Below are positions 12,432-35,984 of a stretch of DNA of 64,000 nt, piece by piece. Location of the stretch: NCBI GenBank assembly GCA_044892525.1, contig CM097885.1, positions 162,564,001 to 162,628,000 of the forward strand, written 5' to 3'. Source of the stretch: Schmidtea polychroa (lineage: Eukaryota). Each line of letters opens with the position of its first letter. Position 1 is the stretch's first letter. The notes under the pieces were generated by a model. It had not been told where the DNA came from, did no database searches, and saw nothing but the letters and a program-made list of their open reading frames with translations. The position numbers and the translations under genes were made by a program.

Positions 12432-13416
12432 CTTCTACGGCAGTCAATGAACACAGCGACTCTTCGGATTAATAGCAGTTCACTTTACAGAACTCACCTC
12501 TTGCTGACAGTCAACCACTAAATCGTAGTACCAACGTCTCGTGCGACGGGCTTTTAATGACCAATTAAAACAGTTATGTGCGGTTACGGAGAGGAATACG
12601 AAAATAAGGAGAAAGACGACCAAATTACAGCGAGAAAGCGCAGTATCTTCCCTACATTTGATGGATACATCGAACCAGCACAATGGGAATTAAAGTTCAA
12701 AACAGATGGCACCAGAAGAACATATCAGAAGACAGAGAAAGAGAACAGCAAATAAAGATGAAGAAATAGTCAACAATCAGATACAACAGCAGTGAAATTG
12801 ACTGTGATCTGGATTCTCATAAAGGATATTTCTCGTTTGAAAAGTATTAACCATTCAATAAAGATCAATCAGGATATCAGAGTCCAGAAAATGAAACATA
12901 GGACTAATGAACTGAATCAGAACAGGATTTTACGACGAAAGAACCGAATTTCGTTATTGACTAAAATAAAACAAACATCACTGAAAAAGATATATGCCAT
13001 CATTTTTGGTAGACAAATTTGCGACGATGATGTGTTAAACCTTGCATTAAAATAAAGATTAATAAACGACAATACGAATAAAATATATCCCAATAAAACT
13101 ATTCCTCGCTGAAAAAGATAATGAGAACATTACCTTGACGGCTCCCAAAGAAATTTTGGATAACAAGGGAAGATATATCGAAAATTTTCAGTTGGTTGGA
13201 AATTACCGAACAAGCCCAAACCAATGTAGGGCCAATATCTATGACAATAAAATATCCCAGTTCAACGTGGGTCCCAAAGCAATTCAGAAAGCAATCCAAT
13301 ACTCAACAAACACATATTCATTCATCTAATTATTTACATTTAATCATTCTTGTGAGACAATTTGATTATCCTTCATACACATTATTTATCCACTTGTTTA
13401 ATTGGAAAGTGTAGTC
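12432..13416. repeat. Copy B of the ~1-kb direct duplication
   Basis: Same sequence as 1-985 (offset 12431). Confidence 0.9.
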
Positions 13417-17043: not shown

Positions 17044-19328
17044 CCGTATTTTCGCGCATATACCCCGCATACGCGTATAACCCGCACACGCGTATACCCT
17101 GCACAAATTACAAAATAAGTAAAAACAAAATCGTACGACCCGCACTCTTATATACCCCGCATGTGCAAAGTGAGACTTGCCGTAAACTACCAGTACATAA
17201 GGTTGTTGCTTATCAGACGTCTGTCCCTCGAGACGCAATCGTGCTGCAGTTGTTGTTCCAACAAGCGATACATGGAGTGCAACACGCGTGTGAAATACGA
17301 TACGAGCCTACGTCGTATCTGTAGTATGTTGTTTTGACAGAAAGTCGTTGACCTAGTTATCTGGTGATGGTAGGAGAAAGATTTACTGCAGCAGCTGAGC
17401 TGGGCCCTACGATTGGCCTGATTGTGCATCGGCTGGTGCTCGGCCTTATTGTGTAGGCTATTAATTCCTGGGGTAATCAGCAGCACGGGTATTCTTGTAG
17501 TTTGAACTTCGTAGCGTATAGTGTGCAGCACGTGCAATTAAAGTGTATAAAAAAAGTGTATAAATTCTAATCAGTACTCAGTAAAGTCTTTTAAGCCTAA
17601 AAATGCCAAAGCGTAATTCATATACAGCCGATTTTAAGCTGCAAGTTTGTGCAGTTGCTGCTACAAAGGGCAATAGAGCGGCTGGAAGACAGTATGACGT
17701 TGATGAAAAGTCAGTTCGCGAATGGCGAAAAGACATTGAAAGTCTACAGCAAATTAATCCCCGCAAAAGAGCTCGTCGAGGGGGAAAGGTTAGATGGCCA
17801 CAGCTGGAGACAAACCTCACAGCATGGGTTCGCTCTCAGCATGAAAACAACAGGGCAGTGTCAACTGTTGGTATCAAACTGAAGGCGAAAATAATGGCTC
17901 CTGAAATGAAGATGGATAATTTCACTGGTAGCAACAACAGGGTTTTTAAATTCATGACACGTAATCAGCTGTCGGTTCGTGCACGGACAACTGTTGGCCA
18001 GAAACTGCCAGAGAATTGGGAAGTGAAAGTTAACGACTTTCAGGAATTTGTTAGAAAGGATATCGTTGAACAGAATTTAAATCCTTCTACTGTCTATAAT
18101 ATGGATGAGGTACCCATGTCTTTTGATATTCCGGCAACTCGCACTGTAGCGGAAAGTGGTTGTAAAACGGTTGCTATTACCACAACTGGACATGAACGCA
18201 CCTGCTTCACGGTTGTCCTGGCGTGCTCAGCTGCCGGTGAGAAGTTGAAACCATTGATTATATTCAAAAGATTGACAATGCCACGTGAGAAACTGCCTCA
18301 GGGAGCAATCGTACTGTGCAACAAAAAAGGATGGATGAACACGGACGTGATGAAAGAGTGGACTGAACGATGCTTTCGTGCTAGACAGGGTGGATTCTTT
18401 CTGCCAAAGTCGTTGTTGATTTTTGATGCAATGGCTGCACACAAAGAGCCGTCTGTTCACAAACAGATCAATAAGACCTGTGCGCACATTGCTGTCATTC
18501 CGGGTGGCTTAACATGTAAGCTTCAGCCACTTGACATCGCTGTTAATCATTCATTCAAGTGTTTTGTCAGCAACGAATGGGAGAAATGGTTGAGTGAAGG
18601 AGAACACACATTCACACCATCAGGAAAGCAGAGATGTGCTACGTACATTGAAGTATGCAAATGGGTTCTGGCAGCGTGGCAGCAAATCAGCACTGAAACT
18701 ATTCGCAATGGTTTCAAGAAGGCTGGCCTGCTAACAGTTAGTGAAGCTAATTCAGAGCCAGCAGTAGGGGGCAGCTTCATTTCGGCCGACAATGTGAACG
18801 CTGATACTGACGATGATGATAGTGATGAAGAGTCGATTTATGACCCAACTGCTGTTGCCAACATGCTTCGCTTATTTGAAGAAGACAGTGAATATGATAC
18901 GAGTTTCGATGGCTTCACTAACTATAGCGAGGACAGTGACATTAGTGAGACTGGCGATTGATTGCGGCTGTATTGCATGCATTGTAGTCTATACGTTTCG
19001 ACACTACTGGTATCGGCAAATTAGTTTAGTTGCTTACCTACTTGTTACATTTGATTACTAGTATATTAAAGATTCTCTGCCGCATCGGTACTATTTGTTT
19101 TCTTGAGGTTTATAATGAGATGTTCATAAAGCTTTCCAATGTACATTTCACAACCACACAGCGAACTATAGGAGGTATAAAGACCCACCGGTATGTCAAT
19201 AGTTTCCGTTATGCTATGTTTATGAGTAAAATAAATTTTGTAAACCCCGCACCTTTGTATACCCCGCACAGCTGCCATTCGTTTGGAAAAACTTGTATAA
19301 CCCGCGGGTTATATGCGCGAAAATACGG
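17044..19328 (+). mobile_element. Full-length pogo-family (Tc1/mariner superfamily) DNA transposon, 2285 bp
   Basis: Perfect 19-bp TIRs CCGTATTTTCGCGCATATA; TA TSD at 17042-17043 and 19329-19330; intact transposase inside. Confidence 0.95.
17603..18961 (+). CDS. pogo transposase, DD35D (Brinker-like HTH + CENP-B HTH + DDE_1)
   Basis: NMDEVP, LIFDAM and LQPLD with 35 residues between the last two Asp; 452 aa, uninterrupted; acidic C-terminal tail. Confidence 0.92.
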   Translation: MPKRNSYTADFKLQVCAVAATKGNRAAGRQYDVDEKSVREWRKDIESLQQINPRKRARRGGKVRWPQLETNLTAWVRSQHENNRAVSTVGIKLKAKIMAPEMKMDNFTGSNNRVFKFMTRNQLSVRARTTVGQKLPENWEVKVNDFQEFVRKDIVEQNLNPSTVYNMDEVPMSFDIPATRTVAESGCKTVAITTTGHERTCFTVVLACSAAGEKLKPLIIFKRLTMPREKLPQGAIVLCNKKGWMNTDVMKEWTERCFRARQGGFFLPKSLLIFDAMAAHKEPSVHKQINKTCAHIAVIPGGLTCKLQPLDIAVNHSFKCFVSNEWEKWLSEGEHTFTPSGKQRCATYIEVCKWVLAAWQQISTETIRNGFKKAGLLTVSEANSEPAVGGSFISADNVNADTDDDDSDEESIYDPTAVANMLRLFEEDSEYDTSFDGFTNYSEDSDISETGD

Positions 19329-19773: not shown

Positions 19774-21016
19774 AGTAGGTAGATAGTGGCCTACGGGAAC
19801 AATTACCCCCCCCCCCCCCCGGGGGGGGGGGGGGGGTTTGTTCCCAAATTTTTATTACGCAATTGTTCCCAACTCATTTTTTTGCTTTCAGGGATTTTTG
19901 GTCCAAATTTTTTTTTATCACACTATAGTGAGAGGGTCTTGATGGTCCTGGGAATTTCTATACAAAAATCCGACTACCACTAAAAAAGCCAAGGATTATT
20001 CACACTATAGTGAGGGGGTCTCGATGGTCCTGGGATTTTCAATACAAATAAAATTTTTTCTATACAAAAATCCGACTACCACTAAAAAAGCCAAGGATTA
20101 TTCACACTATAGTGAGGGGGTCTCGATGGTCCTGGGATTTTCAATACGAAAAATTTTTTTCTATACAAAAATCCTACTATCAATAAAAAAGCCAAGGATT
20201 TATCACGCTATAGTGAGGTGAGTCTCCTTGGTCCTGAGAAATAGGTGGTCTACACTAAAAAACGTGGTAAATTTTTCAATTACAGTAAATTACGGTCCAA
20301 ATTTTTCAATTAAAGTAAATAATGGTTCTAAAAATTAAATTAAAGTTAATTATGGCTCAAATTTTTCAAATAAGGTAATTATGGTTCTAAAAAATTAAAT
20401 TAAAGTTAATTATGGCTCAAATTTTTTAATTAAAGTAAATAATGGTTCTAAAAATTAAATTAAAGTAAATTATGGTTCTAAAATATTAAATTACAGTAAA
20501 TTATGGTCCAGATTTTTCAATTAAAGTAAATAATGGTTCTAAAAATTAAATTAAAGTTAATTATGGCTCAAATTTTTCAATTACAGTAAATAATGGTTCT
20601 AAAAATTAAATTAAAGTAAATTAAGGTTCTAAAAAATTAAATTAAAGTTAATTAAGGTCTAAATTTAAAATTAAGTAATCAATGGTAAAAAATTTTAAAT
20701 AAGTAATAATTTTTAAATAAGTAAATTAAAGTAATAATTTTTAAATAAGTAAATTAAAGTAATGTAATAAGTAAATTAAAGTAAGATTTTAAAATTTATT
20801 AACAAAAAGTTGAAGGTGTTTGAGAATTGAAATTTTTTAATGGAAATTTTTATGAAATATTTTTTTAAGTAATTTTTAATGGAAATTTTTATGAAATATT
20901 TTTCAATGATAATTTTAGATGGAAATTTTTAAGATAACTTTTAATGAAAATTTTTATGAAATATTTTTCAAAGTCAAATGAAAATTTTAACGAAATAATA
21001 ATAAAAATAATAATAA

Positions 21017-21069
<53 letters not shown>

Positions 21070-21148
21070 TATCGACCAAATACATAAAAATGAACTAGAC
21101 ACATAAAACACAAACAATTAACAAATGTAAAGATATAAAATTTATTCA
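19774..21148 (+). repeat. Left TIR of the Polinton (1375 bp) with internal tandem arrays
   Basis: Reverse complement of 34332-35984. Contains a C15G16 hairpin, ~80-105-bp CACTATAGTG repeats, ~30-bp AT-rich repeats and an (ATA)n tract. Confidence 0.92.
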
Positions 21149-21154
21149 ATAAAA

Positions 21155-24100
21155 TTAGTCCTCATCGGACAAAATAACGTCATCGATATCGATGTCATCT
21201 TCTTCATTAAATTCTTCCTCATCTTCTCCAAAATCTTCATTTAATTCTTCCTCATCTTCTCCATCATTTTCTCCATCATTTTCTCCATCATTTTCTGAAA
21301 CATTTTCTGCAACAATTTCTCCAACATTTTCTCCAATATTTAATTCACTTAATCTTACATGCCCATATGCAAGACTAGCGTTTTTCCCCACCCAAACCCT
21401 TTTGTCATCTTTGTTTGTTAGTGCTATTTTTGTGTTTTTAATTGTAAAAATTTGATGATTTTTGCTTGTTATTTTAGTCTGAGGAACCGAAAAAATCTGG
21501 TTAGTGTTATAACAATCCAGGTATGACTGATGTTTTATGTCACTACCTTTCAATGTTACACCTTTAGCCTTTTTTGTTTCCTCATCACCCAACAAGCTAT
21601 AACATTTAGGTCTAAGAAAAACCCACTCCTTATATTTAAGACCTTTATTCTCGTCTTTGAACTTTCCAATGACTGAATCAAGGTTCTTACTATATAAGGA
21701 ATGACAACTATTGTAATTGGAAGTATCTAATAAATTATCTCGAATCATTGCAGGTAAAAGAACCTCAAGTTTGCAGTTAATGACTTCGAGGAAAAAAGAA
21801 TCTGTATCACCTGCAACGATATTAATTTTACAATTAAACTCATTGCGAAATGATTCCAGATCCTTATATTGCAATTCATACATTCTAAGTTTAGATAGAT
21901 CAAGTACAGATTGACCAATGTAACTCGGTCTATCTAAACATATAGAATCTGAATTCAATAGTGTTGCAATTAAATTATCAGCTATTTTAATAGATTTTTT
22001 AAAAGTCGGTTTTGACGAATATTTAACTAATTTACCGGCAGTTGTACAAAGACGAAGATTCATTCTTCTCTTTAAATTTTCAACTGTTTTGCCGTATAAA
22101 CTGTTATTTAGCAATTTATAATAATTTTTATCTAAGTTATTTACGCTTTTTGATCTTAATTCGGTATTTGTATCTATATATTTTTTAAAAATTGGTGATT
22201 GCTTAAATCTTACACCTCTATTTACATGTGTTACTTTAACACCAAGTTCTAAATATAATTTTAATAATCTCCAATGAATAACATAATTAGATTTTGGAAG
22301 ATGAGTTAATAATAATTTTTCAACCTTAGACCCAGCAGGTTTCATTTTTTCAGCAGCTACAGGGAAATCATCCAACTTATCATGAAGCTCAGAAGGAATT
22401 ACAAGATCAACTTCAAGTGTGTATCCATAAGACAAAGATTCAAGATTTAAATTCCTACATTCATCCAGTATTTTATCAAATCCATCAAGAACCCAACAAA
22501 ATTCGCCACAAGGTAATGATTGACTTAAAGCCCACCCATAAAGATTATTAATATCTATATAAAGTAACTCGGTGTTCTCGTCGGTTTTTACGTAATGCTT
22601 ATTCACAAAAGTAAGACCGCCTCTTATTCCACCCTCATAAAAGCTAAACATTTCGTTTTCAGTTATGAGTTCAATTGGTTCATTTAAAGACATTAATGCA
22701 GAAGACCAAGACATGCCTGGAATTCCGAAATAATTCAAAGGTTCTAATCTATTGTGAGCAATTGATTTCAACCTAAACTGATGAAAGAAATCAGCCAAAA
22801 GAAAACAATCAAGTTTTAGGTAGATCATCATATAATCTAATAAAGTTCTGCAATTAGATTCTACCCAAATCTCCTGAGCTTTTTCATACTCAAGCTCAGT
22901 GACACCCTCCCAGATTGGTGGTAATTCATACGTAGTTTGTAGAACATCTAAAGAAGTGGCGAAATTATAAGGGAAGATTCCTTTTTCACCTACTATGGTG
23001 CCAGAAAAAGCAGAATTAGTAAAAGGCAAAGAATTCAAAGTTTTGACTGCTTTAGCCAAAGAATCATTGACAAATTGATATGAATCAATGAATCTTATGC
23101 TAATTTTGCCTAAATGAGCAATCAAAGATATAAATTTTTCCGTAGTTATTGGGATGCACCCTAAATTCCAATTTTTAAATTTATTTAATCCATATTTAAG
23201 TATATGATGCATATCGTATCCCTTCAAGTTGTGAAATACGATAGGCAAAATTTTATTTATTTTTCTATTTACGTTACATGTGCTACAAGCTGCACCCAAG
23301 TATTTGCCCGTAAAATGATCGTGATCTCTAACAGGATCCACGATAGATTTCAAACAAAGATAACAAACCGTTGAATTAATGAATTGTTGTTGCTCAATTT
23401 TAGTTAATTTAATCATTGGTTTCCTACCCATTTTATAATAAAAAGGAAGAACCTTATTTAATGCTATATCCTCTATAGCACTTAAAAAACTCTCGACGCA
23501 ATCTAAACCTATAAACTGTTGATAGGATTTAGATCCGTCAAAGTTATTTACTAGTAAAAGACCAGCAGATATTGGCATGTGTCGCTGAAAATGAACATTA
23601 TCACAAGGTAAAATAGCCTCAAAATCGGCATAAACTACGAAAGGAGGAGTTACTGTTTTCGACCAGTCAGTAAACTGTAAGAATTTATTTTCAGGGAAAG
23701 TATAAAGAGTAGTTCCTAATTGATTGCGTTTGCATAATATTTCATGTTTTTCTAGTGCGTTTCTGTTGTTAAAACCATTCAAACAACGATGACACCATAT
23801 TGATCGTATGCGTGTAGGACAACTAGTGTTTATGTGGCAATTCAGTAACCTATTTAAATTGCTTATAGCAATGTAATGGAAATTGTTCCCTTTATTTAAT
23901 AATAGTAAATTAATTACTGTTCCATTTAAAACTTTGGAACGATGTATAATGTCTAAATGGGGGTGTTTTAAAACGTAATTATCTGTTAATTGTTTGTTAT
24001 TGTCATAAGAAAAAACATTAATTATTAAACCAGGATTTTTGGCCTCGAATTTTCTAATATCTTTTAATTTCATTGGTAAGTCTAATGGATTATATATTAA

Positions 24101-25351
24101 CTCAGATAAATTATAACTGGATGTTCTATTTCTATATTGTTTAATAACTTCATCATATTTTAAAATAGCTAAAATGCTATATAAAAAACACGAATCGTCG
24201 GTGTTTTTTACATTAATTAAACAATATTTATTTTTTAGACAAGTAGGTAGTTCAATGAAACTCCTACCACTTAATCTACTTAGCCTACTTATCTTTGTTA
24301 TGGTGAAGTGGATTTCAGTTATTTTTTTTATGATCCAACTACTTCCTAACTCTGTGATATTACTTATTTTCTCGTTTAGTTCCCTAATGCCTTCGTCAAA
24401 AAATGAGGCAGTTAAAGGTTTTGCGTAATTCGAAATATTATTAACCTTTATTTCCCCGTCTTTTTCAAATTCGATTGTTATTCCGAATTGAATTTTGACG
24501 GAGCCTAATTCGTTAATAATATCTCGTAATTTTATAATTAATTGTTCTGGAAATATTATTTCCTTTATATTCAAGTTACTTGTATTTAGACTTAAAATTT
24601 GATGTGTACCCCTTAAATCTTTTTGTACTATGGGTACATTACCTCCTATTTGTACATTAGTAGTCGAAGAGTCGAGTGAAAGATTATCAAATTCATTATT
24701 GGGTTCGCCTACATCCCAAGAGTCGAGTGAAAGATTATCAAATTCATTATTGGGTTCGCCTACATCCCAAGAGTCGAGTGAAAGATTATCAAATTCATTA
24801 TAGGATTCATCAACTAATCCGACCTGGGATTCAACAAAAGGCAATCCATCATTGGATTCAGCAAAAGACAATCCATCATCGGATTCAGCAAAAGACAATC
24901 CATCATTGGATTCAGCAAAAGACAATCCAACATTGGATTCAGCAAAAGGCAATCCATCATTGGATTCATCAACTAATCCGACCTGGGATTCAACAAATGT
25001 ATTTAATTTAATTTTTTTATTAGTAGTATTTATTTCAATAGTTGAAGGACGTTTAAAAATAACATCTTTTTTAGAATTGAACCTATCTAAATGTTGTTTA
25101 TGCTTATTATAAAAAACGCTATATGTTAAGGGCTCGCTAATCTTACATATGGGGCATATAAAAAAAGTTTTATTATAGTATTTTTTAGAATAATAATTCT
25201 CCATTATAGAATGGCAATTATTATGTTCTTTCGACGAACAATAATTTGGATAAAGTATACCTAAAATATATACATTTAAAAATTTGGCTAAAACATTTGA
25301 TAAAAATAATACTATTAAAATTTTCTTATAATTTTGCATGTATGCATCCAA
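21155..25351 (-). CDS. Protein-primed family B DNA polymerase (pPolB) with N-terminal extension
   Basis: Exo motifs YADFEA, FHNLKGYD, YLKLDC; Pol motifs DINNLYG, KLLNNSLYGK, GDTDS. Also an EndoVII-like CYLC...DHDHFTG...CxxCN insert and a C2H2-like CHRC...HEILC. Confidence 0.96.
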   Translation of the reverse strand: MDAYMQNYKKILIVLFLSNVLAKFLNVYILGILYPNYCSSKEHNNCHSIMENYYSKKYYNKTFFICPICKISEPLTYSVFYNKHKQHLDRFNSKKDVIFKRPSTIEINTTNKKIKLNTFVESQVGLVDESNDGLPFAESNVGLSFAESNDGLSFAESDDGLSFAESNDGLPFVESQVGLVDESYNEFDNLSLDSWDVGEPNNEFDNLSLDSWDVGEPNNEFDNLSLDSSTTNVQIGGNVPIVQKDLRGTHQILSLNTSNLNIKEIIFPEQLIIKLRDIINELGSVKIQFGITIEFEKDGEIKVNNISNYAKPLTASFFDEGIRELNEKISNITELGSSWIIKKITEIHFTITKISRLSRLSGRSFIELPTCLKNKYCLINVKNTDDSCFLYSILAILKYDEVIKQYRNRTSSYNLSELIYNPLDLPMKLKDIRKFEAKNPGLIINVFSYDNNKQLTDNYVLKHPHLDIIHRSKVLNGTVINLLLLNKGNNFHYIAISNLNRLLNCHINTSCPTRIRSIWCHRCLNGFNNRNALEKHEILCKRNQLGTTLYTFPENKFLQFTDWSKTVTPPFVVYADFEAILPCDNVHFQRHMPISAGLLLVNNFDGSKSYQQFIGLDCVESFLSAIEDIALNKVLPFYYKMGRKPMIKLTKIEQQQFINSTVCYLCLKSIVDPVRDHDHFTGKYLGAACSTCNVNRKINKILPIVFHNLKGYDMHHILKYGLNKFKNWNLGCIPITTEKFISLIAHLGKISIRFIDSYQFVNDSLAKAVKTLNSLPFTNSAFSGTIVGEKGIFPYNFATSLDVLQTTYELPPIWEGVTELEYEKAQEIWVESNCRTLLDYMMIYLKLDCFLLADFFHQFRLKSIAHNRLEPLNYFGIPGMSWSSALMSLNEPIELITENEMFSFYEGGIRGGLTFVNKHYVKTDENTELLYIDINNLYGWALSQSLPCGEFCWVLDGFDKILDECRNLNLESLSYGYTLEVDLVIPSELHDKLDDFPVAAEKMKPAGSKVEKLLLTHLPKSNYVIHWRLLKLYLELGVKVTHVNRGVRFKQSPIFKKYIDTNTELRSKSVNNLDKNYYKLLNNSLYGKTVENLKRRMNLRLCTTAGKLVKYSSKPTFKKSIKIADNLIATLLNSDSICLDRPSYIGQSVLDLSKLRMYELQYKDLESFRNEFNCKINIVAGDTDSFFLEVINCKLEVLLPAMIRDNLLDTSNYNSCHSLYSKNLDSVIGKFKDENKGLKYKEWVFLRPKCYSLLGDEETKKAKGVTLKGSDIKHQSYLDCYNTNQIFSVPQTKITSKNHQIFTIKNTKIALTNKDDKRVWVGKNASLAYGHVRLSELNIGENVGEIVAENVSENDGENDGENDGEDEEELNEDFGEDEEEFNEEDDIDIDDVILSDED

Positions 25352-25406
25352 TCAAAATTAATTATTTGCTATAAATGATAATTTAATGAAATAAATTTAA
25401 CAAAAA

Positions 25407-25839
25407 ATGTCTACTATAAATAGTATCCTATTAGAAGAAAATAGTACATCAGTTATAGGTATGGTATGTAAACCTCCTATTCAATTCCTTCAATATAATA
25501 TGTACTATTTGAAATATCCTATTACTTATTCGTTCAAGGTAATTTTTTATTTAATTATTTAATATTAATTTGTTATAGGAACCAGTTAATTTAAAAACAT
25601 GTCAATTCAATATTCAAATTGGAGATATTGGGGAAGAAGATAGAAAAAATCTTGGAGAAATTCTTAAATTAATTAATAAAGAAATGATTTTTAATGAAAA
25701 ATTTACATTTATCAATTGTGAAAAAGGGTGTAAATTAGACGAAGATAAAAAATCAAAAGTGCGAATACTTATTCAAGGAGTCAAGATAAATGGAGTTATA
25801 ATTAAACCAATTTGGAAAATTACAAATGTTTTTGAATAA
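25407..25839 (+). CDS. Spliced 130-aa ORF, possible OB-fold ssDNA-binding protein (exons 25407-25538, 25579-25839)
   Basis: ATG 25407; 40-nt phase-0 intron GTAATT...TTATAG (25539-25578); exon 2 open for 87 codons to TAA inside AATAAA. The SSB call rests only on the C-terminal KVRILIQGVKINGVIIKPIWKI strand pattern and its position next to pPolB. Confidence 0.7.
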
Positions 25840-25914
25840 ATATTTAAGTGTTATTTTAAATGTTGTTGAAAAAAATTTTAAAGTTAATAAGTATTTAATA
25901 AGGGTCAGATTATT

Positions 25915-26945
25915 ATTAAAGAGTACTGCATGCTCACTGCAGACTATTATGTAGCTACGTGCTCACTGTAGACTACATTATTATATTAAAGAGTACTGCA
26001 TGCTCACTGCAGACTATTATGTAGCTACGTGCTCACTGTAGACTACATTATTATCATTATAAAAAAAATTTGCGAGGGATTTCCCCTTATTTCAAAATAA
26101 ATATCATTAATAATAATTTCATTATAAAATATTATTTAAAAATGTTAATAATTTCATCATTATAAAAAAATTTTACGAGGGATTTCCCCTTATTTCAAAA
26201 TAAATATCATTAAAAAATAACATTAATAATAATTTCATTATAAAATATTATTTAAAAATGTTAATAATTTCATCATTATATAAAAAAAAATTTTTACGAG
26301 GGATTTACCCTTATTTCATTATAAAATTTTATTTAAAATATTAGTAAAATATTAGATTATAAAAAATGAGTGAATTTCCTCTTAAGATCAAATAAAATTT
26401 TATTAAAAAATTATATAAAAATATCATTAATAATCATTAAAAAATATTAGTAATTTCATCTTATAAAATTTTATAAAAAATTGATAAAAATACTTACATT
26501 TGACATTTTTGTTCATAGTTTCATTCATTTCAGAATTTTTGTTCATTTTCATAGTTTTTTAGTTTCAATCTTTTTTATCTAAAAAATAATTAAATTTTAA
26601 TAATTAAAAAATAAAATTCTTACAATCCTTGGTACTAGCAAATTATGAGCAAATTTTAAAAACAAATCATTTATATACTTCTTCTTCTACTTAATACATT
26701 ACGTAATAATTAAAGGATTAAATTTGATACCATGCGTAATAATTAAAAGATTAAATAACTTACATAATAATTAAAGGATTAAATAACTTGCATAATAATT
26801 AAAGGATTTAATACCTTACATAATAATTAACTTAATTAAAGATTTAGTTTAATAATCAACTAAAATTTAAATTTTAATAATCAATTATATTGAATTAATA
26901 ATCAACTAAAAATTTATTGAAATAATCAGCTAAAATTTATTGAAA
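25915..26945. repeat. Non-coding repeat-array spacer inside the Polinton
   Basis: 2 x 70-bp unit (25921, 25991); 3 x GAGGGATTT(C/A)CCCTTATTTC units (about 26074, 26177, 26298); ~28-bp TAATAATTAAAGGATT array (26700-26830); AATAATCAACTAAAATTT repeats. Confidence 0.8.
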
Positions 26946-26966
26946 ACAACTTTTTATTATAAAAAT

Positions 26967-27345
26967 TTATTTCATTGACTTTAACCAAGCCAAACAATGT
27001 TGTCCACATGTTTTTGTTATAGGGTTTTGGTAACGTATTCGATTGTATTCAATCGGCATTGACATTGATTGTAGTTTATTGATTAATATAGGTGGATAAT
27101 AGAATCCCATTGGATCAAATGCATATATTTTGTCTGGTTTCACGTATACTGCAAGCCAATGTTCACCATTCAGATTAGCAGATTGAGTATTTACAATTAT
27201 TGCTTTGTTGACATCTAAATAAGGTATTTTGTCTAATGGGAAAACACCTAGAAATTCTTTTCCTAGTAATTTTCTTCCGATAACATGTATCTGAATAGAA
27301 CTAAATTAATAATAATTAAATAATTTAAATTAATTCTTACTTCAT
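26967..27345 (-). CDS. Adenain-type cysteine protease (PRO), spliced: exon 1 27345-27341 (ATGAA), exon 2 27300-26967; 112 aa
   Basis: Removing the 40-nt GTAAGA...TTTAG intron (27340-27301) gives MNSIQIHVIG...FLGVFPLD...IVNT...GEHWLAV...FDPMG...Q...TCGQHC, with the His, Asp, Gln and Cys catalytic motifs. Confidence 0.92.
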
Positions 27346-27379
27346 ATTTGATTAATTGATTTTCGATATTTGGTTTATA

Positions 27380-28603
27380 TTATACCAAAACAGTACGAGT
27401 AGATGTAATTTGAATTTCTTTTTCAAAAACTCCATATACGATTACAGAAACAGCTTCAGTAAGTGAAGATGCGAATTTAATATCTAATCGCAAATTTCCA
27501 CTTTGTGGTAACTGACTTTGATGAAGATCAAAATCTGGTGCCAATACGAATGTAAAGAATGGATACTTGCTCTTAAAATCAGACATGGTGATACCACAAT
27601 TCATATTTTTATTTAGATAACCCATATTTCTAATAATCGATTGCATATAACTTGTACTATAATCATCATTCTCAAAATCTTGACTATATTTTTCGCGATA
27701 ATCACTTCCTTTACTTAAAGTTATGGACTTGACATTAAAGTGATCAAATAAAGAAAATGATTCTGAAAACGATCCACTAAATCTTTTACTAGATTGAAAT
27801 GCAACAAGTATAAAATTAGGTAATCGTCTATCTCCAAATATTTGTTCTTTATAAAAAGAGGAAGAACCAATAGGTAATGAGAAATCAACAACTTCTTTGC
27901 TTCTTAAAGGATAAATTGCATTTTTGGTAGACAGACCAATTTGATGTCCTGCCAAAACCGATGGTTCAACACGAACTCTTCTAACCATTAATTTTGCGTC
28001 TAATAATAAAATTTTCGGTTCAATTTTCGCACAAGTTAAACTAAGTGTTGGATTTGATCTTGTTAATTTAATTTGAACACTAACACCTGGTAGTAAATAT
28101 TTAGGTTGATCAAAGAAATCAAATTGAAGTGGGGAACATAAAGAAAAGGATTTTGATTTTTCAATCCATGTTTTTCTCGTAAGATCTTTGTTAGTATACC
28201 CCATTCCACCTAAAGATGTTCGTTTAGTATCTCCGTCATAATTTATAAGTGTTTCAATTAATGCTTTGTGGGCAAATCTATCATTTGATCCTTCAACTTT
28301 GATTGAATTAAAAATTAATTCAACATCTTTAAAAAGGGTTTGGAAGAAGAAATTATTTGGAATTACTTCTGATTCGCCTAAATTCTCACCTAAATTATTA
28401 ACAACTTTCAATTGAATATATAACAAAGTATCATTCAAATCTAAATATTCAGTCTGCGATCCATTTATGTAAAATTGAATCGAAGAAGAACCGGCATCTG
28501 TAATTGAATTTCTTGGGTATACATCTTCAAATGCTCCATGTTCAATCACTGCTTGGGGAGAAGGTCTATCAAAAAGACATAATTCTGATTTAGCACTAAT
28601 CAT
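27380..28603 (-). CDS. Major capsid protein (double jelly-roll, Polinton PY/hexon-like)
   Basis: KSELCLF N-terminus, YLDLNDTLLY, QFDFFDQPKYLLPGVSVQIKLTRS and GNLRLDIKF; 407 aa; sits in the structural block. Confidence 0.9.
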   Translation of the reverse strand: MISAKSELCLFDRPSPQAVIEHGAFEDVYPRNSITDAGSSSIQFYINGSQTEYLDLNDTLLYIQLKVVNNLGENLGESEVIPNNFFFQTLFKDVELIFNSIKVEGSNDRFAHKALIETLINYDGDTKRTSLGGMGYTNKDLTRKTWIEKSKSFSLCSPLQFDFFDQPKYLLPGVSVQIKLTRSNPTLSLTCAKIEPKILLLDAKLMVRRVRVEPSVLAGHQIGLSTKNAIYPLRSKEVVDFSLPIGSSSFYKEQIFGDRRLPNFILVAFQSSKRFSGSFSESFSLFDHFNVKSITLSKGSDYREKYSQDFENDDYSTSYMQSIIRNMGYLNKNMNCGITMSDFKSKYPFFTFVLAPDFDLHQSQLPQSGNLRLDIKFASSLTEAVSVIVYGVFEKEIQITSTRTVLV

Positions 28604-28998
28604 TTTTCAAAGATGGTACCATATCCTTTCATTCTTTTGTTTATATGTTTCTTCATAATTTTTCGGCGTTTAAGTATTCCGCCTTTTTGTTCTTTATCAT
28701 TTTTAAATACATCGGATACTTTATTAATTACTTCAGGTAAATGTTGCATCACAGCTGGTAATGATTCTTTAATTTCAGAAATTGCATTTGATTTTAAAGC
28801 AGGCAAGATATTTGCATTGTTATTTATTACGTCATTAGCTGTTTTCATACCAAAATTTCCTATTCGTCTAAGAATTGGGAGTGCAAATCTACCTATTGTC
28901 TTCAACCAACCGGTTCCATATTGTTTACCAACAAAATATGGTAAATCACCACCCGATTGGTTACTACTATAAAAATGTATTATGTCAGGATTACTCAT
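28600..28998 (-). CDS. Small virion-associated protein with amphipathic segment (pVI/pX-like)
   Basis: QSGGDLPYFVGKQYGTGWLKTIGRFALPILRRIG pattern as in small conserved Polinton ORFs; basic C-terminus. Confidence 0.7.
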   Translation of the reverse strand: MSNPDIIHFYSSNQSGGDLPYFVGKQYGTGWLKTIGRFALPILRRIGNFGMKTANDVINNNANILPALKSNAISEIKESLPAVMQHLPEVINKVSDVFKNDKEQKGGILKRRKIMKKHINKRMKGYGTIFEK

Positions 28999-30007
28999 TT
29001 ATTTTACGAAAATGTAATGTCAAGTATGTTTTATCTTCTTTTCCAAATATATATTTTCCACTATCATCTCGTATATTGATTTCTATATTGTTTATATATG
29101 AAGACGATACAGGTAAGTACATTGGATTCTTTTCAATTATTTGTACTAAATCATCTTTTTTATGTTTTTCCACCCAAATACATTTCAAAAGAGGGACCAA
29201 TGTATCACCAACAATAATAGGTTCGATAATATTTGTATAGATCATCAATTGTTGATTGCGTTGTAATACTTCAGGTTCTTTAAAACCAATAATAAGTTTG
29301 TCAGTATATGCTTCTTCTAATAATCCTAAACTATTGGCTAAAAATTTACTAAATTGAACTTTACTGACATCATCATCCATTACAATTTTAACGATTTTTC
29401 CTTTTTGAATATCAACAGATTTAAATGGACGAGGATAAAAGAGTGATAGTTGATCATTTATTTGTGAAAGATCTGTAATGATATTTTCTTCGAATGTATC
29501 TGTATACTCGACATCGTAATAATATTGTATAGTTAATCGAATTGTATCAAACTTTATTTTTCGATTATTTGGAGGAATAGTGATTTGGTTCAAGGCTTTT
29601 TTAAAAGTTATTTCTTTTTCTGAAAATCCCAATTTTTGCGCTTCTTTAATACTATCGAATTCTACTTTAAAAGGAAAATATTTACAATTAATGTTCAATG
29701 TATTTCCATCAATATATATTAAATAAAATGGAGAGTCGTGACTGATTGTATATTCATTTTTTTCTTGGTTAAAGTAAAAGTATTCATAACTTGTATGTAA
29801 TACACTTTTACTATATTTGACATTTGAATTACTGTAAAAAGGAAAATAATTATACACAAAGGTAAAGTCCATGAGAGCTACTTCCCATTCACCATCCAAG
29901 TAAATAGGATTTTGAAATTCGACATTAAATTTACCAGCTTCATTATTTGGATGAGTCTGAGGACAACTATTAGAAGGTAAATTCACATAAAAATCTTTTT
30001 TAATCAT
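28991..30007 (-). CDS. Minor capsid protein (penton-like), paralog B
   Basis: FYVNLPSNS...FQNPIYLDGEWEVAL N-terminus; IYTNIIEP...VPLL...NPMYLPV...NIEINIRDDSG...LTLHFRK C-terminus. Confidence 0.88.
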   Translation of the reverse strand: MIKKDFYVNLPSNSCPQTHPNNEAGKFNVEFQNPIYLDGEWEVALMDFTFVYNYFPFYSNSNVKYSKSVLHTSYEYFYFNQEKNEYTISHDSPFYLIYIDGNTLNINCKYFPFKVEFDSIKEAQKLGFSEKEITFKKALNQITIPPNNRKIKFDTIRLTIQYYYDVEYTDTFEENIITDLSQINDQLSLFYPRPFKSVDIQKGKIVKIVMDDDVSKVQFSKFLANSLGLLEEAYTDKLIIGFKEPEVLQRNQQLMIYTNIIEPIIVGDTLVPLLKCIWVEKHKKDDLVQIIEKNPMYLPVSSSYINNIEINIRDDSGKYIFGKEDKTYLTLHFRKINE

Positions 30008-31025
30008 TTATTTTACGAAAATGTAATGTCAAGTGTGTTTTTGTATCTCTACTAAATTTTATTAATTTTCCACTATCATCTCGTATATTGATTTCAATGT
30101 TGTTTATAGAAGAATTAGAAATTGGTAGATACATTGGATTCTTCATTTCTAGTTGCACAATTTCTCCTTGTTCATATTTTTTTATCCAAATAGATTTCAA
30201 TAACGGAACTCTTACATCTCCAACAGTCAATGGTTCGATAATATTTGAGTAAATAAACATTTGTTGATGATGATTAAATAACTTTGGAATTTTTGTTCCA
30301 ATAATTTCTTTCTCTGTAAATGTTTGTTTCTTTAATCCCAATGTTTTTGTTAAATTTTTATCAAAGGTTATTGATGAAATGTTATCAGCAAGACTTATTT
30401 TAACCAATTCATTATTTTGTATTTTTAAATCTTTAAAGGGAGACGGATTAATTGTCATTAACTGACCATGTATTTCAGATAAAGTATTGATGTATAATTC
30501 ATCTTCGAAATAATGTTCAAATTTTGTTTTTTCAACAACACTTATAATTATACCAAATTGATCAATTGTTTTATCTTCTGTAAATTTTGGTAATTTAATT
30601 CGCAAATGATCACTATCACTAATAACCGATACTGATTTTAATCCAAATTTAATAGCATGTTCAAAATCTGGAAACGTTATTTTAAATGGAACATGTGGAC
30701 AAACAACAACCAAATTCTCATATCTTTCAATGAACATGTCAACTTCAGGAGTATTTTTAGGATTTATTACTTCAAAGGTTCGATTTGAATTATTTATTCT
30801 AAAATATTTAATTTCTTCATCCATCTTTACTTTTTCATATTGTATCAATGAATTACTGTAATAAGGAAAAGTATTATACACAAAGGTAAAGTCCATGAGA
30901 GCTACTTCCCATTCACCATCCAAGTAAATAGGATTTTGAAATTCGACATTAAATTTACTAGCTTCATTATCGGGGAAAATAAGAGGACAACTATTAGAAG
31001 GTAAAATAATATAAAAATCTTTCAT
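30000..31025 (-). CDS. Minor capsid protein (penton-like), paralog A
   Basis: Same terminal motifs as paralog B; the central ~200 aa are highly divergent. Confidence 0.88.
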   Translation of the reverse strand: MKDFYIILPSNSCPLIFPDNEASKFNVEFQNPIYLDGEWEVALMDFTFVYNTFPYYSNSLIQYEKVKMDEEIKYFRINNSNRTFEVINPKNTPEVDMFIERYENLVVVCPHVPFKITFPDFEHAIKFGLKSVSVISDSDHLRIKLPKFTEDKTIDQFGIIISVVEKTKFEHYFEDELYINTLSEIHGQLMTINPSPFKDLKIQNNELVKISLADNISSITFDKNLTKTLGLKKQTFTEKEIIGTKIPKLFNHHQQMFIYSNIIEPLTVGDVRVPLLKSIWIKKYEQGEIVQLEMKNPMYLPISNSSINNIEINIRDDSGKLIKFSRDTKTHLTLHFRKIND

Positions 31026-31030
31026 AATAT

Positions 31031-32179
31031 TTATTTAATCAATTGATTTTCAGATATCCAAGATGGAGTTTCATATCCATGCCATTTAACATAGTATTGT
31101 TTATATTTACCATCTTTTTTGGTTTTTAAAATCTTTTGAATTCTAAATATTGTAGGAGCAGGAATTACTTGGAGTTCTTGTTCATAGAATTTACCAGTGA
31201 TTGGTTTGTTTTCATGATCAACTATCACATACATGACAGGATTCTGTTTTGTATCGATTTTAAAAATTTGATATACTTCATCACTCCAATTATTATCAAA
31301 GTTTTTGATGAATGGTGAAGAATTGATTTTACTAATTCTTACATGATCACCAACCTTGTATTTCGGTTTATTGATTTTTTCTGACTTTGTTTGATTTTTA
31401 GTAAAATCTGCAGGTGTTTGTCCTTTTAATCCTCTGTGTGGTGAATGATTGTAACTGAAAATAATTTTTGGCAAAACATTTATCCAAGTTTTATTACCTT
31501 GATATACAAAATATTTTTTCAAGCGTTCTCTTAAAGTTCGATTAAATCGTTCTACGTGAGCAGCTTTGAACTGAGAAAATACCGAGTAATGGTTTATTCC
31601 TTTGATAACCTCTTTAACTTTGCTGTTATAAAATTCTTTACCTAAATCATATATTTAAAAATTAATTAATTAAATTTAATTACCTAAATCCGTTTGTAAA
31701 TTAATAGGTTTACCATCTGCAAACATTTCTTTTATCGCATCAGCCATTTCATTTGCAGATTTAGTTTTTGTAGGAACAGCACGAGCATATCTATTAAAAA
31801 CATCTATACAAGTCAGAATATATTTGTACCCCTTGTTAATTTTTGAATAAGGTATCATTTCCATCAAATCCATTTGCCATACATCATTGTTTCCAATTGT
31901 TTTGTATGGTCTTGTTGGAAAACGTTTCAACATTGGTTTATTTAAACTATATGCTAATTGATTAGATAACCATTTCTGAGTTTCTTTCTTTGAATTATTC
32001 ACTCGTTTTGTTAATTTTTCTACGCCACCAAAACCATCTGGATCTTTTGGGTTTGTCCATATGGTTTTTAACTTTTTCTCTATTGTTTTCACTTTTTTCA
32101 CTTTTGTTTTCACATTTGTTTTCACTTTTGTTTTCATTTTTTCCACTTTTGTGTTGGTTTTGTGATACGTTTCCTTCAT
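31031..32179 (-). CDS. Retroviral-like (RVE) integrase with C-terminal chromodomain; exons 32179-31684 and 31641-31031; 368 aa
   Basis: WQMDL (D1). QTDLG|KEF (D2) is restored by removing a 42-nt GT-AG intron (31683-31642). VERFNRTL (E). YYVKWHGY...SWI chromodomain. Confidence 0.92.
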
Positions 32180-32248
32180 TATTACAACAAGTTGTCAAAA
32201 TATTAAAATCTACAATATTTTTATTTGGTAATGAACTCTTGATACCCA

Positions 32249-32575
32249 TTAAGAACTTAATGATGAGATTGCACTAATTGCAGATAAGACTATAGGAATT
32301 AGTGCACCCAAGAACCCTCCTTTTTGTTTATATATTATCTTTCTCATTAGACGACGATTTTTTGTATCAACTAGAGATAAAAGTGATCTTTTATGTCTTT
32401 GCAATACTAATCTTTTAGCTTTAGTTATATTTACATTACCGCGGACAACATTTATAATAACTTCAAGTAAATCATCAATAACAAATGATGGAAAAGACTG
32501 TAAAATTGATATTCGTTTCGAATTTGGTGCCTTTATTAAAGCATTAAAATATGGTAAGCTCCGTTCAAATTTCAT
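32249..32575 (-). CDS. Basic core-like protein (pVII-like Polinton ORF), 108 aa from the ATG at 32575
   Basis: EVIINVVRGNV...LQRHK...KQKGGFLGALIP pattern. The track's start at 32620 is a non-ATG codon. Confidence 0.7.
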   Translation of the reverse strand: MKFERSLPYFNALIKAPNSKRISILQSFPSFVIDDLLEVIINVVRGNVNITKAKRLVLQRHKRSLLSLVDTKNRRLMRKIIYKQKGGFLGALIPIVLSAISAISSLSS

Positions 32576-32604
32576 TATTATTATTAATTTACGCGACGGT
32601 TTGT

Positions 32605-32757
32605 TTATAATTTGATCCACTTCTTGATTTGTTTCTTAGTTTTTGTAGTTTTTGTACCTTTTGATCCACTTTTTGTTTTCTTTGTACGTTTTGTTTTCTT
32701 GGTAATTTTCTTCGAAACACTTGGAAGATTTTTAACAACTACTTTTTTAAATGACAT
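32605..32757 (-). CDS. 50-aa Lys-rich basic protein (candidate DNA-condensing protein)
   Basis: MSFKKVVVKNLPSVSKKITKKTKRTKKTKSGSKGTKTTKTKKQIKKWIKL: 19 Lys, 1 Arg, no acidic residue. Fills the gap between the ATPase and core-like genes. Confidence 0.65.
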   Translation of the reverse strand: MSFKKVVVKNLPSVSKKITKKTKRTKKTKSGSKGTKTTKTKKQIKKWIKL

Positions 32758-32776
32758 GATTAATTTTATTTAGTTT

Positions 32777-33400
32777 TTAGTTTTGTTTATAAATCGTAAC
32801 ACCGTTTATATTAAAAATATCAGTTCTAATACGCATATCATCTGGACATTGTTGTGTAAAATCAAAAAATAAATATCCATGAGGAATTTTTGTTGCATCT
32901 TGGAATGAATCAATCAAAAATTTTCTATTATTTGGATAAGCTTGTCTTGCAAGAAAATCTATTATTGTTTGATCTCTAGGATTTTTGAAAATAATTAAAT
33001 ATTGGACATTTAAATTACGTGTTCTATGACTTCCACCTTGATGAAAAAGATTTTGTGTAATGAAAATAACTGTAACTCCACAATGTCTACTGATTTTTGT
33101 AAATAAATTATTAAAATCTTTTTCTTTATTTGCTTCCTGGTACAGATCATCGATAATAATAACATCACCTTGACGTAATCTAGATGACCAATTTTTATCA
33201 AATCCTTTAATTATTGTCATTTTTAATTTACAGAAACTGTTTTGAGTCAATCCATGTTCTTCATCTGCACCTCGATGCCAATATATTTTATTAAATTTAG
33301 ATTTAAACATGTTTGATTGTAATAAATTACATACAAATAAAGTTTTCCCGCTTCCACTAGGTCCAACTATTTGATATACTGCGTCATTTCTTAATTCCAT
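32777..33400 (-). CDS. A32/FtsK-like genome-packaging ATPase
   Basis: Walker A GPSGSGKT, Walker B IIIDD, FTKISRH, FITQN. Confidence 0.95.
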   Translation of the reverse strand: MELRNDAVYQIVGPSGSGKTLFVCNLLQSNMFKSKFNKIYWHRGADEEHGLTQNSFCKLKMTIIKGFDKNWSSRLRQGDVIIIDDLYQEANKEKDFNNLFTKISRHCGVTVIFITQNLFHQGGSHRTRNLNVQYLIIFKNPRDQTIIDFLARQAYPNNRKFLIDSFQDATKIPHGYLFFDFTQQCPDDMRIRTDIFNINGVTIYKQN

Positions 33401-33450
33401 TTTTTAATTAAATTATTTTATTTAATTTGTTTATAATTACAATAATTAGA

Positions 33451-33927
33451 ATGATCAGCAACATTAATTATAGAGGAAGATGTGTAGTTAATGGAATGAA
33501 GTTTCCATCAGGAAAACCTCAACATGTCGTGGACAGAAGTGGAAAATATCCAATTTTATTCTTCAAGAGCGGGAAATGTAGGATAATGGGATGTAAGAAA
33601 CCATTACAGGAAGGCGATCTCAAATATCAGATTCAAGATTTACAAATCCAATCAATTACATTAACGCTAGATATGGGTACATGCATTGATTTAAATGCAT
33701 TGTCAAGGAAAACCGATAGTTACTACGAGCCTGAAATATTTCCAGCTTTACGTATTCTCAAGTATAACCCCCTATGTGTAAATGTTTTTTCAAGTGGGAA
33801 AGTTGTTATATTAGGGATTAAAACATTTGATTATTTTAATCAAATTCAAGAAATTCAGAAATTCATTAAATCATTAACTATAAATATCACAACAAATGAA
33901 GAAATATTGGAATATTTATTAAGTTAA
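33451..33927 (+). CDS. TATA-binding-protein-like protein, 158 aa
   Basis: Two TBP-like repeats: ILFFKSGKCRIMGCK and YEPEIFPALRI...NVFSSGKVVILGIK, plus SNINY and IQSITLT strands. ATG at 33451 (the track uses TTG 33427). Confidence 0.85.
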   Translation: MISNINYRGRCVVNGMKFPSGKPQHVVDRSGKYPILFFKSGKCRIMGCKKPLQEGDLKYQIQDLQIQSITLTLDMGTCIDLNALSRKTDSYYEPEIFPALRILKYNPLCVNVFSSGKVVILGIKTFDYFNQIQEIQKFIKSLTINITTNEEILEYLLS

Positions 33928-33990
33928 TTAAATTAATTTAATTAATTGTGTTTAAATTAACTGAATATCTACAATAACAAAAATTCAAAA

Positions 33991-34338
33991 ATGGATGACG
34001 ATAAGCAAGCTTACATATTCCAGACTATATTAACGAAGATGGAAGAATTGTTCCCGAATATAAAGAACAGACTTTCATATTGTGCTCCGGAATTATTAGC
34101 TTATAGAATCAAGCAATTAACTGGGATCAATATAGAAGAACTTATACGAAGACATTTCGAATCTGTACAAGAATCAAGATTTAAATGCATAGACGATTGT
34201 GAAGTATGTATGGATCCGATGAAATTACCATGTCCGTTTAGATGTAGATGCTGCCAAGAATATAAGATGAAAGAAGTTGTTCATATTTTACTAGCAGAAT
34301 TAAGAAGAGCTTATTACAAGCAAATATTGGATGAATAA
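33991..34338 (+). CDS. Cys-rich protein of unknown function, 115 aa
   Basis: ATG in A-rich context; CIDDCEVCMDPMKLPCPFRCRCC cluster; the stop falls in the AATAAA at the TIR boundary. Confidence 0.75.
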   Translation: MDDDKQAYIFQTILTKMEELFPNIKNRLSYCAPELLAYRIKQLTGINIEELIRRHFESVQESRFKCIDDCEVCMDPMKLPCPFRCRCCQEYKMKEVVHILLAELRRAYYKQILDE

Positions 34339-35984
34339 ATTTTATATCTTTACATTTGTTAATTGTTTGTGTTTTATGTGTCTAGTTCATTTTTATGTAT
34401 TTGGTTGATATATTATTTTTATTATTATTATTATTATTTTTATTATTATTATTTCATAAAAATCTTCATTAAAAGTTATCTTAAAAATTTCCATCTAAAA
34501 TTATCATTGAAAAATATTTCATAAAAATTTCCATTAAAAATTACTTAAAAAATTATTCCATAAAAATTTCTATTAAAAATTACTTAAAAAATTATTTCAT
34601 AAAAATTTTCATTAAAAAATTTCAATTCTCAAACACCTTCTATTATTTCAACTTTTTGTTAATAAATTTTAAAATCTTACTTTAATTTACTTATTACATT
34701 ACTTATTTAAAAATTATTACTTTAATTTACTTATTTAACTTTAATTTAAAATTTTTGACCATTGATTACTTAATTTTAAAATTTGGACCTTAATTAACTT
34801 TAATTTAATTTTTTAGAACCTTAATTTAGTTATTTGAGCCCATTCATTACTTTAATTTAAAAATTTGAACCATAATTTACTGTAATTCAAAAATTTGGAC
34901 CTTAATTTACTTTAATTTAATTTTTTAGAACCATAATTTACTGTAATTGAAAAATTTGGACCAATACTTACTGTAATTTAATTTTTAAGAACCATTATTT
35001 ACTTTAATTTAATTTTTTTAGACCCATAATTTACTTTAATTAAAAAATTTGAGTCATAATTTACTTTAATTTTTTACCATTATTTACTGTAATTAAATTT
35101 TTTAGAACCATTATTTACTTTAATTGAAAAATTTTGACCATTATTTACTTTAATTGAAAAATTTGAACCATAATTTACTTTAATTTTTAGAACCATTATT
35201 TACTGTAATTTAATTTTTAGGACCATTATTTACTTTAATTGAAAAATTTACCACGTTTTTTACTGTAGACCACCTATTTCTCAGGACCAAGGAGACTCAC
35301 CTCACTATAGTCTGAAAAATCCTTGGCTTTTTTAGTGTAGACCACCTATTTGTATTGAAAATATCCTGAGACCTTAAATTACCATGCTTTTTTAGTGTAG
35401 ACCAGCTTTTTGTATTGAAAATATCCCGAGACCTTAAATTACCATGCTTTTTTAGTGTAGACCACCTATTTCTCAGGACCAAGGAGACTCACCTCACTAT
35501 AGTCTGAAAAATCCTTGGCTTTTTTATTGGTAGTAGGATTTTTGTATTGAAAATCCCAGGACCATCGAGACCCCTTCACTATAGCGTGAAAATTCCATGC
35601 TTTTTAGTGGTAGTCGGATTTTTGTATAGAAATTTTTTTTTTGTATTGAAAATCCCAGGACCATCGTTTTTGTATAGAAAAAATTTTTTCGTATTGAAAA
35701 TCCCAGGACCATCGAGACCTCCTCACTATAGTGTGAATAATCCTTGGCTTTTTTAGTGTAGACCAGCTTTTTGTATTGAAAAAAATTTTTTGTATTGAAA
35801 ATCCCAGGACCATCGAGACCCCCTCACTATAGTGTGATAAAAAAATAATTTGGACCAAAAATCCCTGAGAGCAAAAAATGTGAGTTGGAACAATTGCGTA
35901 ATAAAAAGTTGGAACAATTTTACCCCCCCCCCCCCCCCCCCGGGGGGGGGGGTAATTGTTCCAGTGGGCTACTATCTACCTACT
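34332..35984 (-). repeat. Right TIR of the Polinton (1653 bp)
   Basis: Inner boundary TGAATAAATTTTATATCTTTACATTTGT matches 21121-21148 exactly; has extra repeat units around 35290-35520. Confidence 0.92.

Follow-up and report, generated by a model that had tools for sequence, protein, structure and literature searches.

Tandem predicted penton genes of a Schmidtea polychroa Polinton: evidence for partial concerted evolution and natural recombinants

Two neighbouring genes in a 64,000-nucleotide stretch of the Schmidtea polychroa genome (contig CM097885.1, positions 162,564,001 to 162,628,000; hereafter the window) carry identical DNA near both of their ends and differ in their central parts. 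This raises the question of how the ends of two such genes came to be the same. A preliminary description had read them as minor-capsid paralogs whose ends are either homogenised by gene conversion or used as recombination arms around a swappable receptor-binding cassette. The analysis presented here indicates that they are probably two diverged predicted pentons from one old tandem duplication, whose 5' ends have been homogenised by repeated conversion and whose insertion domains have remained distinct.

Both genes, here called g1 and g2, lie in an element of 16.2 kb with long terminal inverted repeat arms at approximately 19774-21148 and 34332-35984 and the 6 bp target-site duplication TAAATT on both flanks. 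A 6-bp target-site duplication is a feature of Polinton/Maverick, and the element is a member of this class. The following features of the window were used.

19774..35984, minus strand: Polinton/Maverick copy, 16.2 kb, with terminal inverted repeats and target-site duplication
21155..25351, minus strand: polymerase-like ORF of 1398 aa
26967-27308, minus strand: protease-like open frame (about 113 codons) in which His, Asp and Gln-Cys motifs were recognised by eye
27380..28603, minus strand: likely double jelly-roll major capsid protein (Atlas feature score 0.98)
28600..28998, minus strand: 132-aa ORF between g2 and the major capsid gene, found at the same place in sister families
28991..30007, minus strand: g2, ORF of 338 aa, predicted penton paralog (model pLDDT 87.8; mavirus penton match)
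28995..29025, minus strand: 3' identical block in g2, coding for the predicted last strand and overlapping the 132-aa ORF at that ORF's start
29252..29821, minus strand: g2 insertion domain in the model, codons 63-252 (116/189 residues identical to the homolog P0002)
29585..29608, minus strand: g2 amino-acid hotspot, codons 134-141, at a hairpin predicted in the distal insertion domain
29849..29934, minus strand: 5' identical block in g2, an exact match to the g1 block
30000..31025, minus strand: g1, ORF of 341 aa, predicted penton paralog (model pLDDT 87.9; mavirus penton match)
30004..30034, minus strand: 3' identical block in g1, predicted last strand, overlapping the g2 start
30264..30845, minus strand: predicted g1 insertion domain between jelly-roll strands D and E, codons 61-254 (125/194 residues identical to the homolog P0001)
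30873..30958, minus strand: 5' identical block in g1, codons 24-51, putative conversion tract and crossover site
31031..32179, minus strand: rve integrase with a chromodomain-like end, present in this copy as two separate ORFs
32777..33400, minus strand: A32-like packaging ATPase (Pfam Pox_A32, E 7.9e-7, above cut-off)

The integrase was recognised by Pfam (rve, E 1.2e-8, above cut-off), and its end matched Chromo below the cut-off (E 2.5e-4, 21.3 bits against 25.1). An integrase with a C-terminal chromodomain belongs to the definition of adintoviruses, as do a PolB bearing an OTU-like domain at its N-terminus and a hexon reciprocally found by BLASTp (PMC11071296). For the major capsid ORF, to which Pfam gave no match, 228 shared Atlas features were obtained, with PF21738 on 24-30% of the cluster members and a recognition value below the mark of the tool. 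The 1398-aa ORF had no match in Pfam, PHROGs or PDB sequences; with polymerase-like motifs recognised by eye, it is a candidate for the protein-primed family B polymerase expected in a Polinton. The protease-like frame, which is without an in-frame ATG and gave no PHROGs match, may be spliced or broken. Also inside the element are a TATA-binding-protein-like ORF (33427-33927, plus strand; Pfam TBP, E 4.7e-16) and a small basic ORF matching adenovirus protein X (32249-32620, minus strand; Pfam Adeno_PX, E 2.5e-6). Outside the element, the window contains a Tc5/pogo-type and two hAT-type transposase ORFs (17603-18961, 51281-53401, 59648-61534) and a 300-bp exact direct repeat (1-300 and 12432-12731).

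Pfam and PHROGs assigned no family to g1 or g2. In a structure search, the mavirus penton was the best match to both models (E 1.2e-7 for g1, E 5.9e-9 for g2), with TM-scores of 0.35-0.40 and about 10% identity. Mavirus, Sputnik and adenovirus pentons headed both match lists, and viral minor capsid models matched as well. Based on these models, g1 and g2 are predicted to be pentons with a jelly-roll base and a D-E insertion domain. The predicted base consists of three N-terminal strands together with C-terminal strands, and the third strand is followed by an insertion of about 190 residues; the 5' block codes for the predicted second and third strands. The PX protein of Polintons has been described as the penton (PMC4028283), and most adintovirus pentons carry an insertion after the third strand, between D and E (PMC11071296). 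For mavirus and Sputnik, the variable insertion domain between these strands has been proposed to recognise the host or the helper virus (PMC6048507). A slippery heptamer of the frameshift type has been hypothesised near the penton 3' end (PMC11071296); one was found there in g1, none in g2, and one of four sister genes had it. The central parts of g1 and g2, which had been regarded as unrelated, share 53 of 190 residues and a common predicted fold with an identical order of strands and helices.

The genome comprises 781 Mb in 1012 contigs. The g1 protein gave at least 118 scored matches at 99-100% identity, a 26-mer of the shared block gave 477 exact matches, and 30 fetched element copies had a mean identity of 99.7%; the two-penton Polinton family is young and high-copy. 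Polymorphism was scored in 74 distinct rows from 89 mapped loci. Four-gamete violations were common across copies at 28995-31020 (147 of the 863 site pairs no more than 250 bp apart), from which it is likely that copies of the family recombine with each other. In the same interval, the rate of change across copies is about 2.5 times higher at CpG sites than at the remaining C/G sites. A homolog search returned 29 proteins and led to a 26-protein alignment, and trees were built from 21 proteins (this alignment thinned, plus two sister-family pentons). P0001 is the ortholog of g1, and P0002 and P0032 are orthologs of g2.

A search with P0012 revealed other Polinton families in the genome, with the same gene order and a single penton in 15 of 15 fetched loci. 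Since these single-penton families are abundant, two pentons are not needed in general. Some of these families are mosaic near the penton start. In one locus (L188:1250-1750), the integrase of one family is joined to the penton and capsid genes of another, with the switch at the penton start, and in another (L193) a short tract of another family lies at the border of base and insertion, near the end of strand D. An IMG/VR scan yielded 13 pattern matches, none of them a relative. A metagenome scan yielded 34 loci, mostly short, with a tandem penton-like pair in one: this contig (L073:175-2453) carries two distant tandem penton-like genes of 389 and 361 codons, whose ends are not obviously identical at the protein level.

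Both identical blocks were confirmed as maximal exact matches, one of 86 bp (29849-29934 and 30873-30958) and one of 31 bp (28995-29025 and 30004-30034). The 86-bp block is embedded in about 180 bp of 91% identity, and its two copies form a direct repeat 1024 bp apart. Divergence along the genes was not uniform. When identical residues with degenerate codons were compared between g1 and g2, 1 of 47 differed synonymously in codons 2-60 versus 37 of 98 in codons 61-329 (Fisher p 6e-7). Within the 5' block none of 26 synonymous-capable codons differed between g1 and g2, whereas the pentons of single-penton sister families differed from g1 or g2 at 6-10 of 20-23 such codons (30-50%), demonstrating that synonymous sites of this block are free to vary.

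The orthologs were then compared in the same block. P0001 and P0002 share 17 of 29 residues there, whereas g1 and g2 share 28 of 29; P0001 and P0002 were compared as proteins only, and their status as neighbours rests on an equal longest contig (4061) for both. In the block g2 is identical to P0001, the ortholog of g1, at 24 of 29 residues and to its own ortholog P0002 at 21 of 29, so that the main donor appears to be g1. The pattern expected of orthologs is kept outside codons 21-58. A tree of the 41 N-base columns did not join g1 and g2, with weak support and without resolution.

Polymorphisms within the family gave a further line of evidence. The paralogs of one copy shared a variant seven times in the 5' block versus 1.5 expected (p 0.003, 74 rows), compared with none in the middle and one at the 3' end. 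The seven cases fall on four sites and are all synonymous; four of them are one site and may represent one event. The 3' end, too, had more shared singletons than expected (19 versus 10.8), so that context mutation bias inflates this loosest count of sharing. In one two-gene copy (L108), a gene that is g1 in its remainder carries g2-type alleles at 12 of 12 diagnostic sites upstream, a tract of conversion in the opposite direction, from g2 to g1. Taken together, the synonymous contrast, the ortholog comparison, the divergence of the sister families and the synonymous polymorphisms that older copies share between paralogs bear out the proposal that the 5' base is homogenised by gene conversion; as judged from these alignments, the genes appear to undergo concerted evolution by interlocus gene conversion in the 5' block only.

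We propose that homologous recombination at the direct repeat, within or between copies, would copy short tracts, mainly from g1 to g2. Such tracts would survive in the base, where both proteins may tolerate the same residues, whereas in the insertion domains, which have diverged, they would be prevented or removed. The same repeat is sometimes resolved as a crossover, which gives one-gene copies, extra-gene copies and tandem arrays. In this view both proteins would be placed at the vertices of the capsid, where they may form mixed or alternative pentamers and g2 would face the host more than g1; mixed vertices and distinct receptors are plausible.

These products were counted with exact patterns spanning the 5' block, which gave 118 g1-type matches (youngest allele only) and 214 g2-type matches. 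Crossovers do occur in the blocks, and the single-gene recombinants that had been predicted are present in the genome, with five matches, or eight when one allele was relaxed, in addition to locus L048. The one-gene form is g2 with the first codons of g1. With L048 included, it was found at seven sites on six allele backgrounds and therefore likely represents several events. The 24 reciprocal matches comprise 22 units of tandem arrays on contig C2, one three-gene copy and the L108 tract. At the 3' end, recombinants were found as two g1-g2-g2 loci and one locus without g2. All of these counts are lower bounds, since exact patterns miss decayed copies. In the sequencing runs listed for the two-penton stretch, among which there was no RNA run, no listed contig spans the stretch (runs with a small share at 80% likeness gave fragments), so that contigs could not confirm the recombinants. 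One 210-base contig (run X7 record 23), compared with 30790-30970 of the window, has 12 differences from g1, two of them g2-type, and is unlike it beyond 30970; it is possibly another penton gene with the shared block.

The tandem arrays (G000:C2:152476001-152486000 and C2:152770001-152790000; L101, L104, L105) repeat the g1 body with a 1023-bp period, contain 10 and 18 block copies, and have most units broken near codon 329. They share one deletion and hence reflect one event or an assembly duplicate. In poxvirus gene accordions, one gene is expanded and contracted in tandem by recombination; unlike these, the arrays described here belong to integrated copies and consist for the most part of units that are broken near the 3' end. 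A palindromic derivative occurs at two sites (G000:C1:67836001-67866000 and C2:2383001-2403000; L113-L115, L109-L110). It consists of two inverted half-elements with a one-penton deletion, is without polymerase and is closed by terminal repeats; the spacers differ between sites. Among the fetched and matched loci, none of the one-gene, three-gene and array forms founded a family, which suggests that mobile lineages needed or favoured both genes. The recombinants fit ordinary homologous recombination at the direct repeat, in mobile lineages that have kept both genes, and the one-gene and many-gene copies are likely a by-product and not a programmed swap.

The history of the central parts was followed in trees of the middle, in which (g1, P0001) and (g2, P0002, P0032) formed sister clades with a support of 98, or 96 when the C-terminal base was included; the C-terminal base alone gave a tree without the sister relation of the two lineages. 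Identity of the insertion domains to their orthologs was 61-64%. For variants common to at least two copies, pN/pS was 0.09-0.35 in all six regions, whereas it was 0.49-1.07 for private variants. Both middles are thus old and under purifying selection. Positive selection across the whole domain was ruled out by pN/pS values of 0.18-0.35 in both middles. In g2, 7 of 23 amino-acid alleles carried by at least three copies fall in codons 134-141 (scan p 5e-5 for the gene, 8e-4 for the middle, 0.012 for distinct codons), and the same scan on g1 gave no hotspot (p 0.72). P0002 and P0032 differ from each other at 10 residues, all of which lie in 81-156, with three at 137-139. This suggests that the hotspot is a host-facing loop; it could also be due to relaxed constraint or to an imported tract.

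The strongest competitor of repeated conversion with its neutral outcome is that homogenisation is itself selected, the two proteins forming a mixed pentamer in which selection fixes conversions for interface-compatible base strands. We regard this as possible but rather unlikely. The block codes for predicted base strands, both genes are constrained, and conversion altered g2 amino acids relative to the ortholog. A mixed penton has a precedent in the tectivirus PR772, where the vertex is made from two proteins (P5/P31) with similar base domains (PMC6750898); in PR772 only one of the two bears a spike, which is trimeric, whereas here both have full inserts and co-assembly would be hypothetical. 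However, the P0001/P0002 pair persists without homogenisation, the larger C-terminal base is identical between g1 and g2 at only 57 of 85 residues, and neutral conversion explains the pattern without this additional step. A prediction of the g1 and g2 complex, in which alignments were not used, scored 0.01 and gives no evidence either way. The fuller version of the mixed-vertex reading, a real virus whose pentons co-assemble, whose conversion keeps the base strands compatible and in which the tip of the g2 insert diversifies under host pressure, is doubtful at present.

The cassette reading of the preliminary description, in which identical ends are kept as recombination arms to exchange insertion domains and thereby change tropism, fared much worse and is very unlikely. 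In its favour, crossovers do fall in the blocks, and the sister-family loci L188 and L193 are mosaic near the penton 5' end. Moreover, in human adenovirus D the loops of the penton are exchanged by way of conserved flanks that likewise act as crossover sites beside variable surface domains (PMC3648800), although there alleles of one gene are exchanged between co-infecting types and here paralogs of one genome exchange their base. The middles, in contrast, follow the lines of their orthologs and were of two types only in the fetched loci. Among 275 block hits of the fetched loci (overlapping loci counted repeatedly; a sample made up of 18 matches that were unpaired, taken from the first 100 of the 477 block matches, plus 40 further loci), 148 led into a g1 middle and 122 into a g2 middle. 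The remaining five belonged to truncated or deleted copies. Comparison of the middles across these copies thus revealed neither a swap nor a third type, nor any double crossover by which a middle alone had been replaced. When a crossover falls in the 5' block, approximately the first 20 codons are exchanged and not the middle, and the 3' arm is only 31 bp and common to other families. Programmed cassette switches of the shufflon type have a dedicated site-specific recombinase and several alternative variable parts behind a constant part. Such a switch was rejected as well, as a Pfam scan found no site-specific recombinase among the 11 element ORFs and only two types of middle were found in the fetched loci.

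That no conversion took place at all, and that the two ends stay alike through strong constraint on protein and codons in an AT-rich element, is still less probable. Constraint does account for the 3' block, which codes for the conserved last strand, overlaps the start of the next gene and is nearly the same in single-penton sister families (one difference in the first 7 codons); conversion is not needed there, and conservation largely explains the identity, contrary to what had been assumed for both ends. The N- and C-terminal strands are also the most conserved columns among the 26 homologs. For the 5' block, on the other hand, constraint is already disfavoured by the synonymous contrast and the sister-family divergence, and the shared polymorphisms argue against it. 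Hardly credible is an artefact in which collapse or polishing of the assembly across the repeat made the blocks identical: the two C2 arrays do share a deletion, and one ends in ragged units, so that this second one may be an assembly duplicate, but in 30 of 30 young loci the blocks show no difference apart from two single changes, older copies have private variants in the block of each paralog and differ between paralogs within it, both genes are present at a cover of at least 80% in 70 of 89 mapped genomic loci, and contigs of four studies have the same flanks and alleles.

Among known systems, the adintovirus and Polinton PX penton likewise is a single jelly-roll with a D-E insertion, encoded one gene from the major capsid gene (PMC4028283; PMC11071296). 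Duplicate pentons are mentioned for two adintoviruses, and the accessible parts of that account say nothing on conversion, recombinant products or selection on the insert (PMC11071296). Mavirus and Sputnik provide the best structural matches and likewise have a variable insert between D and E; they differ in the low similarity to the models given above and in an insert of 139 aa versus the longer, two-part insert of about 190 aa here, and the mavirus penton is the homo-pentameric product of a single gene, whereas here there are two genes (PMC6048507). Our literature search retrieved no paper on conversion between Polinton penton paralogs or on reciprocal recombinants; the family may be described in papers under subscription, in repeat databases or in supplementary files of PMC11071296. 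The accessible portions of 10.1101/697771, 10.64898/2026.10.13.758929 and PMC9952930 contained nothing on conversion between penton paralogs.

The two-penton Polinton is a real feature of this genome, a duplicated predicted penton that appears to be under partial concerted evolution and is accompanied by natural recombinants. With one-gene and many-gene products in one genome beside this concerted evolution, rates of conversion and crossover between viral paralogs become measurable. Particles of animal Polintons have not been observed (PMC8097293); with its hundreds of copies, its two pentons under constraint and its localised hotspot in a predicted surface domain, this young family is a good place to seek natural particles. 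If the mixed-vertex virus described above were true, the locus would provide sequence evidence for an extracellular, receptor-binding stage of an animal Polinton.
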